A DNA stretch of 64,000 nt. Origin: a virus. The stretch spans positions 64,001-128,000 of the IMG/VR virus record IMGVR_UViG_3300026097_000805, one strand, 5' to 3'. A program made the position numbers and the translations under genes. The notes under the pieces are model-generated. The model worked only from the letters and a program-made list of their open reading frames with translations. It was not told the origin of the DNA and did not search any database. Each line of letters starts with the position of its first letter. Within the stretch, counting starts at the first letter, position 1. This document shows positions 49,699 to 56,545 of the stretch, piece after piece.

Positions 49699-51003
49699 TT
49701 ATATTTTTTCGTTAGGCTCAAAGCCTCTGAATGTTTTGAATCTTGGAAATCGCAAACTATATGTACCATCTTGATTTTGTGTAATTGCATCTGCTCTTAC
49801 TTCGACTAAATTGCCGATAATAGCATTGCGATTATTCCAAAACTCGTCCCGATGAACATCAGAAAAGCCACTACCCACGTTAACGCGAATATCTTTTCCA
49901 TCATCGATCCCCTCACAAACGAATGCTCCAAGACGTCCTTGATTCCTGCCAGTGCCTTCTTCAACTTCCTTTACCTCCAGTGTGACTTCAATAAATGGTT
50001 TTGCTTTGAGCCAAGCATGTGTACGCTTGCATTCATAAGGTGCGTCAATGTCTTTGATCATAACACCTTCATATCCACCGTCTACAGCCGCTTTATTAAG
50101 CTCTACAAAGCGAGCTTCGCCTTCTGGTGTGTCTAAGTCTACTTCTTCCCAATCCAACGCTTGTACGTGCTCTAAGACGTCCTTGTGATCTTCTACCCAG
50201 TGCTTGGTGATCTCACTACGGAAGCTCTGAGGCTTATCCCACGAACCATTCTGGAAACAACCTAGCGGAATAGTATCAAACAAGTGCAGTACAGCATCGT
50301 TTGCTTCTACATTGTCTTTGCGATGCACTTGCTTCATAAGGTCTTGGAAGTTAGCACTCATTACTTCACCGTCTAACACTAGCGGATAAGGTACAGGATA
50401 CTCTGCAACAACTGCTTCAAGTTCTTCAATGATGTGCCCAAAGTTGTGAAACTGTTTTCCGTTGCGACTAAACATTTCTACTTTGTTGCCGCGAATAATT
50501 GTAATAACACGAACACCATCAAGTTTGATTTCAATCTGTTTCTTGCCACGCATCTTCTTTTCGTGCTTGAGACTGTCATGTGCAAGCGCACAAGTAAACA
50601 CAGGCACAGTACCTGGCACTACTTTGTTCACAGTCTTTTCACTTACACCACAGCGCAGGTCTTTGATAAGGATACGTCGATACCAGTCATTCCATTGTTC
50701 CTTTGTTGCTACTTCCATAGCAAGTAGGATGGCATCGCGAGCAGCGTGTCCAGTTGCATCTCTGTTGATCAACAAGTCAGTAAGTTTTACAAAGTTATCC
50801 CAGTGCAAGCCTTGTCCTGTATCTTCTTCTTTGACAGGCACTTGTTTTACACCAAAAGTCACAAGTGGGTCCAATGCCATACGCAAGCCTTCAAAGAACT
50901 CTGGAAGTCCTTCTTTATGTGCGGCAAGAATAATATCTTCTTTGTTAAGACGACTGTTGTGTATTTCTAATTGTCGTATAATTTGATCTGGCTGGGTTCG
51001 CAT
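49699..51003 (-). CDS. ATP-dependent DNA ligase
   Basis: EIKLDGVR (KxDG), LDGEV, LFD, EGVMIK, WLKAKP, SLRFPRF; start at MRTQPD. Confidence 0.95.
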   Translation of the reverse strand: MRTQPDQIIRQLEIHNSRLNKEDIILAAHKEGLPEFFEGLRMALDPLVTFGVKQVPVKEEDTGQGLHWDNFVKLTDLLINRDATGHAARDAILLAMEVATKEQWNDWYRRILIKDLRCGVSEKTVNKVVPGTVPVFTCALAHDSLKHEKKMRGKKQIEIKLDGVRVITIIRGNKVEMFSRNGKQFHNFGHIIEELEAVVAEYPVPYPLVLDGEVMSANFQDLMKQVHRKDNVEANDAVLHLFDTIPLGCFQNGSWDKPQSFRSEITKHWVEDHKDVLEHVQALDWEEVDLDTPEGEARFVELNKAAVDGGYEGVMIKDIDAPYECKRTHAWLKAKPFIEVTLEVKEVEEGTGRNQGRLGAFVCEGIDDGKDIRVNVGSGFSDVHRDEFWNNRNAIIGNLVEVRADAITQNQDGTYSLRFPRFKTFRGFEPNEKI

Positions 51004-51182
51004 CTTTGTTCTGGCTCCATGTCTAATGATTCGTGAAAGTCGAACACTGTCCAACCTTGTAATGCATACATTGTAGCATGAGAAGGCGTACAGAGCAAGA
51101 TTTTTTGCTCCATATACCCTGCGGTTTCTACTCGAGCGTGTTCTACAAATCGCTCGATACTGTATAGTCTGTGTTCAATCAT
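50967..51182 (-). CDS. Hypothetical protein
   Basis: Fills the gap between flanking genes. Confidence 0.5.
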   Translation of the reverse strand: MIEHRLYSIERFVEHARVETAGYMEQKILLCTPSHATMYALQGWTVFDFHESLDMEPEQRCEPSQIKLYDN

Positions 51183-51327
51183 CCCAATCAATTTTGTTGT
51201 ACTTAGGTTTCTTTTTGATCTTGTTTTTGATCACTTGTGGACGGAAGGGACCTTGTGGATCCCTTACCGCCTTTGCTTCAAAGTTGCGTCTCTTGGGTGC
51301 TTGAGGACGTCTTAGTTTCTTGGACAT
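51175..51327 (-). CDS. 50-aa basic protein, ArfA-like candidate (not in ORF track)
   Basis: MSKKLRRPQAPKRRNFEAKAVRDPQGPFRPQVIKNKIKKKPKYNKIDWDD; TAATG-coupled. Confidence 0.65.
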   Translation of the reverse strand: MSKKLRRPQAPKRRNFEAKAVRDPQGPFRPQVIKNKIKKKPKYNKIDWDD

Positions 51328-51866
51328 TATACAACCCTTAGATCCTCAATGTTTATAGGAGTGTAGTCAATATGCTCTACACAAACACATCTGTGATGTT
51401 CTGTTGGACTTGGATTCTGATGAATATGTCCGTGAACATTTAACAACTGCTCACCTGCCTTGTTGTGACGATAGCGGTACAGTCCACTAGGGTCCAACGG
51501 AATGTGACTCAACAACAACCCATGCTCGTGAAACTCTCTCCACACAACAACCTTGGTGACAAGTCCGTTCTGAATAAAGAACTTGGCATCATCGTGATTG
51601 CCAAGAACTAATCTTTTAGAACCATTCAGTCTGGCCCATAAACTTCTAAAAGTGTCTTTATTGCCAAAAAACACATCACCCAAGTGGTATACAATATCAC
51701 CGGGCTTGACAACACGGTTCCAGTTTTCGATCATTGTTTCGTCCATTTCTTCAACAGAACTAAAACGATCGCCACGAACTAACTTACCTGTGCGTGAATC
51801 CACAAAGTTAAGGATATTGGCATGTTGAAAGTGTGTATCACTAATTAACCAAATATCTCTAGACAT
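51327..51866 (-). CDS. Calcineurin-like metallophosphoesterase
   Basis: SDTHF, HLGD, GNHD, SHIP, HGHIH. Confidence 0.92.
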   Translation of the reverse strand: MSRDIWLISDTHFQHANILNFVDSRTGKLVRGDRFSSVEEMDETMIENWNRVVKPGDIVYHLGDVFFGNKDTFRSLWARLNGSKRLVLGNHDDAKFFIQNGLVTKVVVWREFHEHGLLLSHIPLDPSGLYRYRHNKAGEQLLNVHGHIHQNPSPTEHHRCVCVEHIDYTPINIEDLRVV

Positions 51867-51895
51867 GTTGCCCTCCTTTCTTAAGTGTTAATAGT

Positions 51896-51924
51896 ATTAT
51901 ATGTGTATTTAACTTGTTTGTCAA
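51896..51924 (-). promoter_or_regulatory. Consensus sigma70 promoter
   Basis: TTGACA-17 nt-TATAAT; TAAATA in the spacer. Confidence 0.85.
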
Positions 51925-51931
51925 CCAATAG

Positions 51932-52007
51932 TGGTGCTAGAGGACGGAATCGAACCGCCGACACGAGAATCTTCAATACCCTGCTCTACCGACTGAGCTA
52001 CTCTAGC
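51932..52007 (-). tRNA. tRNA-Phe(GAA)
   Basis: 76-nt cloverleaf, encoded CCA; U-U mismatch in the anticodon stem. Confidence 0.9.
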
Positions 52008-52011
52008 ATTA

Positions 52012-52082
52012 TGGTAGTAAATGATAGAATCGAACTATCTCTTCAGGCTTATGAGACCCGAGTCCGGACCACCGGATTTACT
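52012..52082 (-). tRNA. Atypical tRNA(CAT), Met or Ile2
   Basis: Acceptor AGTAAAT/ATTTACT, T-loop TTCGATT, CCA; shortened D region; 71 nt. Confidence 0.75.
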
Positions 52083-52083
52083 A

Positions 52084-52166
52084 TGGAGTGCAAGACAGGA
52101 CTCGAACCTGCATAGTCTTACGACACGGATTTGCAATCCGATGCATAACCATTCTGCCACTTGCAC
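52084..52166 (-). tRNA. tRNA-Cys(GCA) with long variable arm
   Basis: Anticodon GCA, U73, CCA; 13-nt variable region GTC-GTAA-GAC-TAT; 83 nt. Confidence 0.9.
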
Positions 52167-52167
52167 A

Positions 52168-52242
52168 TGGCTGGGGCGGAAGGACTCGAACCTCCAATCG
52201 ACAGAATCAAAATCTGTTGCATTACCAATTATGCTACACCCC
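52168..52242 (-). tRNA. tRNA-Gln(TTG)
   Basis: U1-A72, G73, CCA. Confidence 0.95.
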
Positions 52243-52248
52243 AAAACT

Positions 52249-52324
52249 TGGTGGACTCGCTCGGATTCGAACCGAGGACCAATTGATTAAAAGTCAACTG
52301 CTCTACCAACTGAGCTACGAGTCC
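52249..52324 (-). tRNA. tRNA-Lys(TTT)
   Basis: Canonical 76-nt cloverleaf, CCA. Confidence 0.96.
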
Positions 52325-52325
52325 A

Positions 52326-52409
52326 TGGTGGGGAAGGTAGGATTCGAACCTACTCACTTTACGAACTGATTTACAGTCAGCCGCGCCTCTCCAACTGCGC
52401 CGCTTCCCC
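52326..52409 (-). tRNA. tRNA-Tyr(GTA)
   Basis: Class II cloverleaf, CCA. Confidence 0.95.
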
Positions 52410-52410
52410 A

Positions 52411-52486
52411 TGGTGTCAAAGGATGGACTTGAACCATCGACCTAACGGTTATCAGCCGTTTGCTCTACCAACTGAGCTACATTGAC
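52411..52486 (-). tRNA. tRNA-Ile(GAT)
   Basis: Canonical cloverleaf, CCA. Confidence 0.95.
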
Positions 52487-52491
52487 AAACT

Positions 52492-52565
52492 TGGCACCGG
52501 TCCAGGGAATCGAACCCCGAGTTTCAGTTTTGGAGACTGACGTGTTGCCATTACACTAGACCGAT
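52492..52565 (-). tRNA. tRNA-Trp(CCA)
   Basis: Anticodon arm TCAGT-CTCCAAA-ACTGA, G73, CCA. Confidence 0.93.
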
Positions 52566-52586
52566 ATAAAACTTTTTCCTCCTACT

Positions 52587-52627
52587 AAAAATAAAAAACC
52601 CCTGCTAATATCTCTACTAGCAGGGGT
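52587..52627 (-). terminator. Intrinsic terminator of attenuator 2
   Basis: ACCCCTGCTA-10 nt-TAGCAGGGGT followed by TTTTTATTTTT. Confidence 0.9.
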
Positions 52628-52651
52628 GCGTTAAATAACTTTTCTTGACTA

Positions 52652-52729
52652 CTATGTCAAAAGCACACTCCTGCCTTCGCTAAACCAGCGAATGCAATAT
52701 TGTTGAATATGTTTCATCATTGTAGTCAT
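52652..52729 (-). CDS. Leader peptide 2, MTTMMKHIQQYCIRWFSEGRSVLLT (25 aa)
   Basis: Between a promoter and a terminator; codons 19-22 complementary to the terminator 5' arm; codons 4-16 match the downstream tRNAs. Confidence 0.85.
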   Translation of the reverse strand: MTTMMKHIQQYCIRWFSEGRSVLLT

Positions 52730-52766
52730 TTCTATTTCTCTTTGTTTAATTTCTTAGTATGTGTAT

Positions 52767-52795
52767 ACTATACACGTTTATTTATCTTCTGTCAA
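52767..52795 (-). promoter_or_regulatory. Composite promoter for leader 2 and tRNA array 2
   Basis: TTGACA-17 nt-TATAGT with GATAAATA (52779-52786) in the spacer. Confidence 0.85.
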
Positions 52796-52810
52796 CCGTT
52801 TATTTTACTT

Positions 52811-52834
52811 TTTGACAATTTAGATACAATATTT
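52811..52834. repeat. Trailer arm of the 24-bp inverted repeat enclosing tRNA array 1
   Basis: TTTGACAATTTAGATACAATATTT is the exact reverse complement of 54211-54234. Confidence 0.92.
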
Positions 52835-52838
52835 TAAA

Positions 52839-52913
52839 TGGTACACCGTAGGGGAATCGAACCCCTCTTTCCTGCGTGAAAGGCAAGCGTCCTAACCGAT
52901 AGACGAACGGTGC
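52839..52913 (-). tRNA. tRNA-Glu(TTC)
   Basis: Canonical cloverleaf, CCA. Confidence 0.95.
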
Positions 52914-52918
52914 ATATA

Positions 52919-52995
<77 letters not shown>

Positions 52996-53001
52996 AATAA
53001 T

Positions 53002-53094
53002 TGGCGGTGAGGGTGGGATTTGAACCCACGGAACGCTATTAACGTTCGTCTGTTTTCAAGACAGGTGCAATAAGCCGGACTCTGCCACCTCACC
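53002..53094 (-). tRNA. tRNA-Ser(TGA)
   Basis: Class II, long variable arm, G73, CCA. Confidence 0.95.
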
Positions 53095-53101
53095 AATAAA
53101 T

Positions 53102-53387
53102 TGGCAGCCCGTTAGCCACACACCGTTGGAATGATGCTTGTGACCCCTACACTGTAATAGCCCTGCTGTCTAGTTTATCAGTCTAGGGCACAAACTATTG
53201 TTTAGGTATAGGACTTTTGCTTCTCACTAAAGACCGCCACGGACCAACGGACGGCACTCTTTAGAACTAACACTAATGCAAAGAGCAAGTGGTTAACCAA
53301 TGCATCGACCTAGTTACTTGATAGACTATATCATATCTTTCGCTACTATCGGGCGGTTCAGGCCCTTATCGCCGTCTCTTTCGAGCT
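53102..53387 (-). ncRNA. Unidentified ~286-nt structured RNA ending in CCA
   Basis: 5' AGCUCG pairs with 3' CGGGCU before G-CCA; several internal stems; sits in a tRNA slot of the array; no listed ORF. Confidence 0.6.
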
Positions 53388-53397
53388 AGTGTGTAGT

Positions 53398-53473
53398 TGG
53401 TAGCGGGAGCAGGAATCGAACCTACCTCAGTCCGGCTTATGAGACCAGTGAGTTCCCAGAACTCTATCCCGCA
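53398..53473 (-). tRNA. Initiator-like tRNA-fMet(CAT)
   Basis: 1:72 mismatch (U-U), GCGGG acceptor, CCA. Confidence 0.85.
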
Positions 53474-53476
53474 ACT

Positions 53477-53550
53477 TGGAGCGGATACCGAGAATCGAAC
53501 TCGGACGATCACGTTGGCAACGTGAGAGGCTACCTTTACATCATATCCGC
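53477..53550 (-). tRNA. tRNA-Gly(GCC)
   Basis: U73, CCA. Confidence 0.93.
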
Positions 53551-53554
53551 AATA

Positions 53555-53630
53555 TGGTGGAGATACGCGGGATCGAACCGCGGACCTGAAGCTTGCAAAG
53601 CTACTGCTCTCCCATCTGAGCTATATCCCC
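53555..53630 (-). tRNA. tRNA-Ala(TGC)
   Basis: G3-U70, CCA. Confidence 0.96.
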
Positions 53631-53635
53631 ATTAA

Positions 53636-53712
<77 letters not shown>

Positions 53713-53719
53713 TTTAATA

Positions 53720-53802
53720 TGGTGCCCTGGGGGAGACTCGAACTCCCACTCCGAAGAACTGGTACCTAAAACCAGCGTGTCTACCAATTCCACCACCAGG
53801 GC
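53720..53802 (-). tRNA. tRNA-Leu(TAG)
   Basis: Class II, CCA. Confidence 0.95.
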
Positions 53803-53808
53803 AATTTA

Positions 53809-53883
53809 TGGTGCTGATGGAGAGAATCGAACTCCCAATCTACGCATTACAAGTGCGTTGCCTTACCATTCGGCCACATCAGC
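53809..53883 (-). tRNA. tRNA-Thr(TGT)
   Basis: Canonical cloverleaf, CCA. Confidence 0.95.
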
Positions 53884-53889
53884 AATATT

Positions 53890-53964
53890 TGGAGCGGGTG
53901 GACGGGATCGAACCGACGACACCTGACTTGGAAGGACAGTGCTCTACCACTGAGCTACACCCGC
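53890..53964 (-). tRNA. tRNA-Gly(TCC)
   Basis: U73, CCA. Confidence 0.95.
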
Positions 53965-53968
53965 AATA

Positions 53969-54057
53969 TGGCGGAGCGACTGGGAGTCGAACCCAGTGAA
54001 CGCGGTTAGCGTTCTACGGATTAGCAATCCGCTGCATTACCATCCTGCCCCCGCTCC
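53969..54057 (-). tRNA. tRNA-Ser(GCT)
   Basis: Class II, G73, CCA. Confidence 0.95.
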
Positions 54058-54127
54058 GTATGTGTTTGGCTCTACCCTCCCCTCTGGGCGATTTAACTAA
54101 CGAGGCATCTTGCGTTAGTACCATGTT

Positions 54128-54202
54128 TGGCTCCCGGTGTTGGAATCGAACCAACCAATGACGGATTAACAGTCCGCTCCCCCACCTTGGGGGCAACCGG
54201 GA
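54128..54202 (-). tRNA. tRNA-Asn(GTT)
   Basis: U1-A72, G73, CCA. Confidence 0.93.
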
Positions 54203-54210
54203 ATAAACCT

Positions 54211-54234
54211 AAATATTGTATCTAAATTGTCAAA
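54211..54234. repeat. Leader arm of the 24-bp inverted repeat enclosing tRNA array 1
   Basis: Exact reverse complement of 52811-52834. Confidence 0.92.
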
Positions 54235-54261
54235 GAGCGTGTAGCAAGTTCTTCTTGCTAC
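54228..54261 (-). promoter_or_regulatory. rrn-like antitermination leader (boxB-like hairpin plus boxA-like motif)
   Basis: GTAGCAAG-5 nt-CTTGCTAC then CGCTCTTTGACA (10/12 to E. coli rrn boxA TGCTCTTTAACA). Confidence 0.65.
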
Positions 54262-54272
54262 GTTATGTATAT

Positions 54273-54301
54273 ACTATACTACTTTATTCTGTGCCTGTCA
54301 A
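54273..54301 (-). promoter_or_regulatory. Sigma70 promoter directly upstream of tRNA array 1
   Basis: TTGACA-17 nt-TATAGT. Confidence 0.85.
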
Positions 54302-54321
54302 CTACTATTTTGCCTTAAACC

Positions 54322-54358
54322 AAAAAAAAACCTTCCTTGCTGTGTGCTTGGAAGGTTT
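54322..54358 (-). terminator. Intrinsic terminator of attenuator 1
   Basis: AAACCTTCC-13 nt-GGAAGGTTT with a 9-U tract. Confidence 0.85.
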
Positions 54359-54384
54359 TTGGAATCTTGTTAGCTAATGCTCGC

Positions 54385-54474
54385 TTACGTTCCGCAACCC
54401 TCCAGGCATAGACTACCCGCTGGATTTTCCGATCCAGGTGTCCATGTATCTAATGTGAGTACGAATGTAAACAT
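54385..54474 (-). CDS. Leader peptide 1, MFTFVLTLDTWTPGSENPAGSLCLEGCGT (29 aa)
   Basis: AAGGA SD; codons 24-27 complementary to the terminator 5' arm; codons 9-22 match the downstream tRNAs. Confidence 0.85.
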   Translation of the reverse strand: MFTFVLTLDTWTPGSENPAGSLCLEGCGT

Positions 54475-54504
54475 TGAAAGTTTTTTCCTTATTAACTATG
54501 CATT

Positions 54505-54512
54505 TATTTATC
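54505..54512 (-). promoter_or_regulatory. Late-promoter-like box GATAAATA upstream of leader 1
   Basis: Same 8-mer precedes many structural genes in this window; resembles T4 late TATAAATA. Confidence 0.65.
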
Positions 54513-54563
54513 ATCTAGATAAAAAACACGCACATATTGGCTTATTTTTGGAACTTTGCTGTG

Positions 54564-55160
54564 TTAATATCTCTTAGGATGAATAAATGAAGAAATAGAA
54601 AATCTACCATCTATTGCATCATCCGACTGCATTTTTACCGGTTCTACATTATGTATTAAACAACTGGGAAATAGCACAGTTCTTGCATTCTTCAGTTGAA
54701 TATTGTTGCCTGCAATATTAAAATCTCCACCTGTAAACTTTTTTGGTTCCTTAAATAACCATGTAATACACGACATCAAAGCTGTATCTGCATGAGGCTT
54801 GTAATAGTCGCCTTCATTGTACCTTGATAACAACACGTCATACTCGAACTCACAAAATAAGAATTCAAAAAAATTACTTTTGCTTGCTAAACTTTGCTTT
54901 ATCTGTAGATCATAAAGTTTTTTATGAACATTAATAATATCACTATATTCCGGATTTATCACTTGATGAATCCAGATTCCTTTATTCTTTTTTAAATCTT
55001 GGCCTGTTAGATCAATTGCTGACCCAGTATTATTAGGGTTAAGCAACTTTGAAGACAAAAATGATACTTCTTTCCAAATTGCAGAAATTTCTTTGTCGTC
55101 AAAAAAATTGTCTATAATAGCAACAGGTAAGTCTTTTACTTTAAGGATTTGTAAATGCAT
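54564..55160 (-). CDS. 2OG-Fe(II) oxygenase (prolyl-4-hydroxylase-like)
   Basis: YYKPHAD, FTGGDF, HNVEPV, GRFSI. Confidence 0.88.
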   Translation of the reverse strand: MHLQILKVKDLPVAIIDNFFDDKEISAIWKEVSFLSSKLLNPNNTGSAIDLTGQDLKKNKGIWIHQVINPEYSDIINVHKKLYDLQIKQSLASKSNFFEFLFCEFEYDVLLSRYNEGDYYKPHADTALMSCITWLFKEPKKFTGGDFNIAGNNIQLKNARTVLFPSCLIHNVEPVKMQSDDAIDGRFSISSFIHPKRY

Positions 55161-55165
55161 TTGAT

Positions 55166-55612
55166 TTACTTACTAAATTTTAGCGTATAAGTCTTACCAT
55201 TGTTCCAAAACTTAATTGTGCTATGACTATAAACTTCTCGCTGGCGTTCTTCATATCGTGTTTCGATCGAGCATTGACGCTCCGTACGATAGCCTGTGAC
55301 GCTTTGCTTGGACTGATTTTTATCAGCGGCAATCATACCTCCAATAACGGCGCCAGCTGCCGCACCTTTGTCGTCACCCGAAGCACCTTTGCCAATAAGG
55401 CCACCAATAATCATACCACCTAGTACATCTCCTGCACTAGCACCACTTCCAGTCTGGCCGTACACAGGTACCTGTACATCCTTGCATACCTCTACACGAT
55501 ATGGCTCTTGTTCGATTACAGTTTTATAATGATCTTGTGTGACACCACGAACATTTTCTGCAAGTGCAGGAGTTGCAATTAACATACACGAAGCAACAAT
55601 AAATTTTCTCAT
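55166..55612 (-). CDS. Exported glycine-zipper protein
   Basis: Signal peptide; GDVLGGMIIGGLIG...AAAGAVIGG. Confidence 0.8.
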   Translation of the reverse strand: MRKFIVASCMLIATPALAENVRGVTQDHYKTVIEQEPYRVEVCKDVQVPVYGQTGSGASAGDVLGGMIIGGLIGKGASGDDKGAAAGAVIGGMIAADKNQSKQSVTGYRTERQCSIETRYEERQREVYSHSTIKFWNNGKTYTLKFSK

Positions 55613-55962
55613 TTTATATCCTCTCTATACCATCCAGTATTGTATTCATCTACAATGTTTACATTATTTACACGATCATAACGGAAACTGCGCCATCCTT
55701 TAGCATTTACGTCCCATACACTCACAACAGCATCTGAGACTTTTCGAACAGCTTTTTGAGTCATAGGATCTTTCTTAGTTGCTGGCGGTTTCATGTCTTC
55801 ACGCAAGGTACAGGTCATAACACGCTTGTCACCGTCTAATTTAGTAAAGTCAACTACGAGCACATTTTGTTCTAGTAATCTTTCTAAATCTTCACGTACA
55901 GGAATACCTTTGAGTGTTGCTACTGTCTCAGCGACTTGAGACGACTTTATCTGCGAATCCAT
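55609..55962 (-). CDS. SH3/Sm-like (WYL_2/DUF2693-like) protein
   Basis: [15 protein letters not shown] and [13 protein letters not shown]. Confidence 0.75.
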
Positions 55963-56545
55963 TTTCTACTGCTTCCTCTGCTGTTAAGAACGTATCAAAC
56001 TTCATAGTTTCAAACAGTTCTTCATAAGACTTGTTTGCTGTGTTGTGTTTAACATACAGCTCTGTAAGACGCTTGTTGATCTTCTGCGACTCTTCGTAAT
56101 GACGTTTTGCATCTTCAAACTGTAGCTCTTGAACATGCACACTGCCACTTGTACCTGGAGTACCTGAGCTTACACGATGGATCATCGTACGGCTTTCTGG
56201 CAATACAACTCGCTTTCCTGGCGTGCCTGCTTGTGCAAGGAACGAACCCATTGAACATGCTTGGCCCATTACAATAGTGCGTATATCGGGCTTAATAAAC
56301 TGCATAGTGTCGTAAATAGCAAGTCCTGCTGTGACAGCGCCTCCGGGCGAGTTAATGTACAAACTAATTTCTTTGTCACTGTTTTGACTTTCTAGATATA
56401 GCAACTGTGCTACAATCAAATTGGCCATATTATCTTCTACTGGACCGTTCAACATCACAATACGGTCTTTCATCAATCGGCTGTAAATATCGTATGAACG
56501 TTCGCCGCGACTTTCTTGTTCTACTACCATTGGAATTAGTGGCAT
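55928..56545 (-). CDS. clpP: ClpP protease proteolytic subunit
   Basis: [23 protein letters not shown] (Ser), MIHR (His), FDTFL (Asp). Confidence 0.96.

Follow-up and report, generated by a model that had tools for sequence, protein, structure and literature searches.

The eight-tRNA array at 52565-51932 on the minus strand of the DNA analysed here is quite probably gated by a ribosome-mediated (leader-peptide) transcription attenuator in the style of trp and ilv, and its tRNAs are probably made only when the codons they read are decoded slowly. The stretch analysed (the window) comprises 64,000 nucleotides, bases 64001-128000 of a viral contig of 179,647 bp with a G+C content of 38.6%, and coordinates are those of the window unless stated otherwise. 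A blastn search of GenBank phages with the leader region yielded zero matches, and a 6-kb query recovered tRNA-level similarity alone, in unrelated phages; no cultured relative was found among them. The features of the locus, in minus-strand order, are as follows.

First in order, minus strand: 2OG-Fe(II) oxygenase gene, 5' of a small ORF and terminator
54301-54273, minus strand: promoter P1 (strong), preceding array 1
Ending at 52839, minus strand: tRNA array 1, running from Asn to Met, then an RNA of ~300 nt (53095-53397), Ser, Asp and Glu
52795-52767, minus strand: promoter P2, TTGACA, 17-nt spacer, TATAGT, predicted by promoter scan
52737-52743, minus strand: Shine-Dalgarno-like motif AAAGAGA, purine-rich, 8 nt 5' of the ATG, read from the sequence
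52729-52652, minus strand: leader ORF, 25 codons plus stop
52705-52728, minus strand: region 1, 5' arm of the long 1:2 helix, containing the start codon and first codons, predicted in MFE folds
52682-52720, minus strand: sensing block, codons 4-16, core MMKHIQQYCIRWF
52676-52692, minus strand: central 7-bp hairpin UUCGCUG-GUU-UAGCGAA within the ORF
52675-52664, minus strand: region 2, 5' arm of the antiterminator, GGCAGGAGUGUG
52646-52671, minus strand: 3' arm of the 1:2 helix, overlapping region 2 and the stop codon, predicted in MFE folds
52630-52619, minus strand: region 3, 3' arm of the antiterminator, CGCACCCCUGCU, overlapping the 5' arm of the terminator
52627-52588 (stem to 52598), minus strand: intrinsic terminator, 13-bp stem, 4-nt loop and U-tract
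52565-51932, minus strand: tRNA array 2 (Trp, Ile, Tyr, Lys, Gln, Cys, CAT, Phe), from ARAGORN and the Rfam tRNA model
51924-51896, minus strand: consensus promoter after array 2
After the promoter at 51924-51896, minus strand: calcineurin-like phosphoesterase gene

A total of 20 tRNA genes were identified in the genome using ARAGORN and Rfam, all on the minus strand and spanning 54202-51932. The anticodons of array 2 are Trp(CCA), Ile(GAT), Tyr(GTA), Lys(TTT), Gln(TTG), Cys(GCA), CAT and Phe(GAA), the CAT species being probably an elongator Met tRNA. The tRNA-Cys(GCA) (52084-52166, minus strand) measures 83 nt and has a long variable arm, an uncommon trait among tRNAs for Cys. The ~300-nt RNA of array 1 matched no Rfam family above threshold. 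The initial annotation had proposed a search for His and Arg tRNAs elsewhere in the genome; the whole 179.6 kb contains no tRNA-His, tRNA-Arg or tRNA-Val. ARAGORN also called a permuted tmRNA-like gene with the tag peptide ANDNYAPETALAA outside the window (C1:154692-155076, minus strand).

The 25-codon leader described in the initial annotation is present on the minus strand, and codons 4-16 read ATG ATG AAA CAT ATT CAA CAA TAT TGC ATT CGC TGG TTT as it had reported. Its claim that these codons cover all eight specificities of array 2 is upheld, each codon being readable by the matching anticodon, and the His and Arg codons are indeed extra to a genome that has neither tRNA. Stop-free windows of 13 codons were examined in all six frames of the whole genome. 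Only two of 181,981 contained all eight amino acids; these overlap, and both belong to this leader. When His and Arg were added, solely the same two windows contained all ten. The corresponding rates per window in shuffled genomes were 5.3 x 10−5 for all eight and 2 x 10−6 for all ten. Since those ten amino acids account for 37% of codons in long ORFs, a run of 13 consecutive codons drawn from them is improbable. The leader codons for K, Q, Y, F, I and H are the phage's most frequent synonymous codons, and the codons of the tail specify amino acids of the other array. Each specificity is represented by one or two codons, with no runs, and sensitivity to any single tRNA may therefore be low.

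Folding of the leader gave an energy far below that of shuffled sequences (z = −8.4). The terminator stem, given as 10 bp in the initial annotation, was found to extend to 13 bp, of which six are G-C, with a stability of about −22 kcal/mol. The antiterminator was confirmed as pairing at 11 of 12 positions, two of the pairs being G-U; the duplex of regions 2 and 3 in the window has an energy of −17.7 kcal/mol, equalled by 0.5% of shuffles. Across lineages with differing terminators, cognate duplexes of regions 2 and 3 ranged from −15.7 to −21.8 kcal/mol, energies reached by ≤0.6% of shuffles, and non-cognate partners paired more weakly. Pairing was counted on an alignment (A3) of 13 distinct sequences. 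For the antiterminator, 92% of cells were paired and four pairs had changed on both sides, as compared with 34-58% of cells in slid controls; for the terminator, 94% were paired, again with four pairs changed on both sides. Between the window and relative L294, for example, GUGUG:CGCAC of the antiterminator is replaced by GUGUA:UACAC. Terminator and antiterminator have thus both been retained through compensatory changes, as expected of an attenuator, and since both use the 5' arm of the terminator they are mutually exclusive.

The long 1:2 helix, which would sequester the antiterminator arm, was predicted in the MFE structure of 13/13 sequences although its sequence differs by lineage. The central hairpin within the ORF, a candidate RNA polymerase pause hairpin, was paired in 98.9% of cells with a variable loop, an invariance that is in part ascertainment, the hairpin having formed part of the search motif. 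All four predicted structures (1:2 helix, central hairpin, antiterminator and terminator) recur in each of the 13 distinct sequences. Rfam scanning of 50500-56000 with E values up to 1 revealed no T-box or other leader family, and identity with a T-box was ruled out on this basis. The sole non-tRNA leader match, to the PyrG leader (31.5 bits against a cut-off of 65, E = 0.26), was taken as chance similarity to a terminator.

When full-length RNA was folded at equilibrium with ribosome masks, the terminator was always favoured, as is the case for classical attenuators. The switch must therefore be kinetic, and equilibrium masked folding was dropped as a model of it in favour of truncated transcripts. 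In these folds the transcript ended before the 3' arm of the terminator and a ribosome footprint of assumed size was forced to be single-stranded. For six variants, placing the A site at codons 2-15 gave a probability of ~0.9 that the antiterminator occupied the terminator arm; with the A site at codon 16 or further on, up to the stop codon, this value was 0.2-0.4. The zone in which a stall would permit read-through consequently coincides with the matched codons, which, together with a 5' helix predicted in all variants to sequester the antiterminator arm, agrees with attenuation. With the footprint assumed, Phe codon 16, the last of the matched codons, lies marginally beyond the permissive zone, and the codons of the tail fall where the ribosome would block the antiterminator.

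The following sequence of events is proposed. Transcripts from P2 or from the upstream tRNA operon would carry the 25-codon ORF, which samples every specificity of array 2. Under fast decoding, the lead ribosome would reach the tail or stop codon and cover region 2, the terminator would form and RNA polymerase would halt ~25 nt before tRNA-Trp. Were a matching charged tRNA scarce, the ribosome would stall at codons 2-15, leaving region 2 free to pair with region 3, the 5' arm of the terminator, and polymerase would pass into array 2. Where no ribosome had loaded, the long 1:2 helix would sequester region 2, resulting in termination. Slow decoding would thereby turn the tRNA block on and sufficient supply would turn it off. 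As the products are the tRNAs themselves, such a circuit would constitute negative feedback on decoding capacity. Translation of the ORF, coupling of transcription to translation and a physiological trigger are parts of the scheme that we infer.

Relatives of the locus were collected from IMG/VR and metagenome contigs, by way of the flanking phosphoesterase (L002) and then by pattern scans. The first viral pattern scan was loose, and relatives were taken among the matches listed and filtered by tRNA context. Most were found using a motif in which the hairpin and the codons for Cys, Ile and Arg are specified, and these elements are accordingly uninformative across relatives. The ORF, its ATG and the Shine-Dalgarno-like motif are intact in 13/13 distinct sequences, indels being multiples of three; a GAG/AGG motif lies at equal spacing from the ATG in all variants, and Cys occupies codon 12 or 13 in every case. 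Codon order is scrambled between variants while membership of the set, the frame and the distance to the hairpin are conserved. A crude screen of tRNA arrays beside distant phosphoesterase homologues (L001, L040, L045 and others) found no convincing leader-terminator unit.

Among the matches listed, eight leader variants were distinguished, and in none of them is there a downstream tRNA without a corresponding leader codon. L002 has a core identical to that of the window and an array of Trp, Ile, Tyr, Lys, Gln, Cys, Met, Arg(ACG), Phe and His(GTG), giving 10/10 matched. The His and Arg codons of the window are thus matched in L002, and the window phage has evidently lost its tRNA-His and tRNA-Arg. 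L144 and its type share the same core, and their tRNA for Tyr departs from the canonical form, with a length of 87 nt and the anticodon GUA. The L073/L080/L191 type has the core QQKHMQKHICIRWF and an array of Trp, Ile, Lys, Gln, Cys, Met, Arg, His and Phe, the Tyr codon and the Tyr tRNA of the array both being absent; L191 carries a Tyr tRNA in array 1 and still has no Tyr codon in this leader, which indicates that the leader matches its own array and not the full tRNA complement of the phage. The same nine tRNAs are found in L294, with the core MMKQIKQHCIRWF. L231 and L285 (core QNSYHNMCIRW) have Trp, Ile, Tyr, Gln, Cys, Met, Arg and His tRNAs plus one without assigned identity; they are devoid of both the Lys codon and the Lys tRNA, and the hairpin loop has no Phe codon. 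In L013, 6/6 downstream tRNAs (Tyr, Trp, Cys, Arg, His and Phe) are covered, with Met, Lys and Gln tRNAs located just upstream. Finally, in L099 and L185 the array is reduced to Trp, Cys, Met and Phe. The 148-nt leader region of L099 differs from that of L182 by only three bases, as a result of which a Thr codon stands in place of the Lys codon and an Ile codon in place of the Tyr codon, and the L099 array has neither a Lys nor a Tyr tRNA.

Tabulation of ten amino acids in seven variants (array/leader) gave 54 cells +/+, none +/−, 12 −/+ and four −/−, an association with a Fisher P of 0.002 and a P of 0.019 when leaders were permuted against arrays; L294, the eighth variant, was left out, and the variants are related, so that cells are not independent. 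The codon set of the leader therefore tracks the tRNA set of the array across relatives, as the attenuator reading predicts. Covariation at the level of isoacceptors was not found: L231 encodes tRNA-Gln(CTG) yet has a CAA codon, and the CGC codon is likewise imperfectly paired in variants with tRNA-Arg(TCG). Orphan codons occur for His and Arg in the window, for Tyr in L182 and for His, Ile, Gln and Arg in L099.

Such orphan codons, which remain after loss of the tRNA, would be expected if the element were a real attenuator that senses general translation status, such as ribosome availability or coupling early in infection, with the codon match being historical or secondary. The presence of each codon merely once or twice, and a 1:2 helix that ties the outcome to whether any ribosome loads, agree with this explanation. 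A general sensor would, however, have no need of the three differences between L099 and L182, all of which remove the Lys and Tyr codons, and the codon sets follow array content through several losses (Tyr, Lys and the Phe position) with order scrambled and membership retained. We therefore consider general-status sensing unlikely. It is still less probable, to the point of being very unlikely, that the 25-residue peptide is itself functional, as a small regulator or an arrest peptide with the tail CIRWFSEGG, and that the codon match is a by-product. The C-terminal half is strongly conserved as peptide in all variants, but the hairpin and the antiterminator arm fall in this same half and ascertainment accounts in part for its invariance, while the position of the stop codon and the residues of the tail vary. 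The N-terminal half is permuted between lineages yet stays within the amino-acid set of the array, which points to selection on codon content and not on the peptide. A small hydrophobic peptide resembling a type I toxin was also considered and ruled out, the peptide not being hydrophobic and its N-terminal half being permuted between relatives.

Several further features were observed in the relatives. The Tyr species of L144 (2257-2343, reverse strand) is a cloverleaf of 87 nt with a tRNA-Tyr acceptor stem, a GUA anticodon loop and an aberrant T arm; it was called neither by ARAGORN at default settings nor by the Rfam tRNA model, and also occurs in L210, L218, L266, L249 and L292. In L073 (1319-2231) an insert of ~770 nt interrupts the tRNA-Trp following the attenuator, close to the anticodon, as it does in L109, L117, L159 and L204; the halves match the intact gene of L232 and L233, and the related L080 is intact at the equivalent place. 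This insert is probably an intron or homing element. Two genes were noted in L231 (3039-3135 and 3213-3295): one, recognised by eye and missed by ARAGORN, is tRNA-like, with ACG in its anticodon loop and an extra arm that is long, and the other, the last tRNA of the array, has an oversized anticodon loop and no assignable identity. GOLLD RNA adjoins the tRNA arrays of L266 (8251-8715, minus strand, 187.5 bits) and L182 (1784-2080, minus strand). Between the terminator and the first tRNA of L013 lies a second ORF of 18 codons (1441-1497), with a strong Shine-Dalgarno sequence and many Cys, Tyr, Trp, Lys, Met and Phe codons. Its position corresponds to that of an AGGAGG retained in the window at 52578-52584, where there is no ORF.

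Promoter P2 was predicted by promoter scan with 11/12 matches to the sigma-70 consensus, and TTGACA-17-TATA(A/G/T)T is found at the equivalent position in leader variants A-F and H; the leader of L013 has no strong promoter of its own. There is no terminator between array 1 and the leader. Array 1 is flanked by the two halves of a long inverted repeat (54234-54211 and 52834-52811, minus strand), the 5' half being a boxA-like motif that follows P1. The 3' half of this repeat stops right before the −35 element of P2, and transcripts of array 1 would therefore continue into the leader, so that the attenuator would gate the flux from both promoters. The promoter scan found zero promoter-like sites in the gap between terminator and tRNA-Trp (~25 nt past the U-tract), in accordance with the earlier statement that no convincing promoter lies there. 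The accompanying claim, that array 2 is fully dependent on antitermination, is sustained in the sense that no promoter follows the terminator and in that sense only, as upstream P1/boxA transcripts also enter.

Transcripts of the P1/boxA operon might be modified for antitermination and ignore the terminator. On another reading, the hairpin would simply end transcription of the upstream tRNA operon, or act as a leaky insulator, with array 2 expressed by basal read-through or by a P1 polymerase modified through Nus/boxA, and P2 and the ORF could represent an unrelated mini-gene or go untranslated. P1 and the boxA-like element upstream, the lack of a terminator between array 1 and the leader and the L013 leader without a strong promoter of its own are all compatible with such an arrangement. 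It offers no account, however, of why compensatory change has retained the antiterminator helix, why frame and geometry are conserved, or why the codon set is unique and covaries with the arrays, and we judge it to be distinctly improbable. Control by ribosome-mediated attenuation remains the preferred reading.

Upstream of P1, a small ORF at 54385-54474 (minus strand), designated 'attenuator 1', has a core enriched in the amino acids of array 1 and is followed by a terminator at ~54352-54325. As this terminator precedes the strong promoter P1, 'attenuator 1' is unable to gate transcription initiated there. No homologue of its peptide or DNA was present in any of the fetched relative loci.

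Multivalent leader-peptide attenuators include those of ilvGMEDA, ilvBN and thr in enterobacteria, with trp and his as the textbook form. As judged by its sequence, the phage leader possesses the tested structural elements of a ribosome-mediated attenuator, namely the ORF, the codons, the terminator and the antiterminator. It resembles the enterobacterial systems in having a short leader ORF with several kinds of regulatory codon and four RNA regions, of which 2 pairs with 3 (the antiterminator) and 3 with 4 (the intrinsic terminator), a 1:2 pairing being predicted in addition. The outcome modelled here is also alike, in that a stall in region 1 would lead to read-through and a ribosome at the stop codon to termination. 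The enterobacterial attenuators, in contrast, regulate biosynthetic enzymes and present their regulatory codons in runs, whereas the phage element would regulate tRNAs and samples 8-10 specificities once or twice each; the phage product would relieve the stall directly, in a closed loop on decoding capacity. The attenuator of pheST (leader pheM), encoding the phenylalanyl-tRNA synthetase of E. coli, is similar in that a gene of the translation apparatus is controlled and the signal is the supply of charged tRNA; it differs in its single specificity (Phe codons), its protein product and its being a host gene. T-box riboswitches likewise tie translation-related genes to tRNA status through a choice of terminator or antiterminator, but they bind one uncharged tRNA directly, by means of a specifier codon and the T-box sequence, and do so without translation; the phage leader would sense many specificities with the ribosome as reader. 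Since the regulated genes are eight tRNAs, the element lies outside the classical scope of attenuators, that is, amino-acid biosynthesis enzymes and aminoacyl-tRNA synthetases. Full-text searches of the literature found no published description of leader-peptide control of phage tRNA arrays.

Phage tRNAs have been viewed as compensation for cleavage or degradation of host tRNAs and as a means of nuclease evasion (eLife 2023;12:e85183, PMC10264068). That work, as summarised in its abstract, likewise deals with tRNAs carried by phages, Lys and Tyr species among them, and sees in them an answer to the loss of host tRNAs; it concerns why phages carry tRNAs and describes no leader-peptide switch over tRNA transcription. 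The leader might be regarded as a multiplexed alarm that signals when the host tRNA pool is attacked, an inducible counter-defence circuit and not housekeeping feedback, although we hold this to be rather doubtful. Loss of any of up to ten tRNAs (Lys, Tyr, His, Arg and others), whether by host anticodon nucleases or by the phage's own host shut-off, would stall the leader ribosome, and the stall would switch on a block of replacement phage tRNAs. That anticodon nucleases of the PrrC or PARIS type are the trigger, as opposed to plain feedback of supply and demand, is speculation.

The reasons for which phages carry tRNA genes, and the manner in which these are expressed, have been debated for decades. 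If the attenuator reading is correct, phages of this kind would gauge decoding capacity codon by codon and supplement just what is short, and classical attenuation would be extended from amino-acid supply to tRNA supply. The leader would provide a readout of tRNA depletion during infection, arising from mismatched codon usage, host shut-off or anticodon-nuclease defence, and may be of use as a compact natural part that senses the availability of many tRNAs simultaneously. The comparative record, in which codons are lost where the array is without the tRNA and relic codons persist after recent loss, makes the idea testable.
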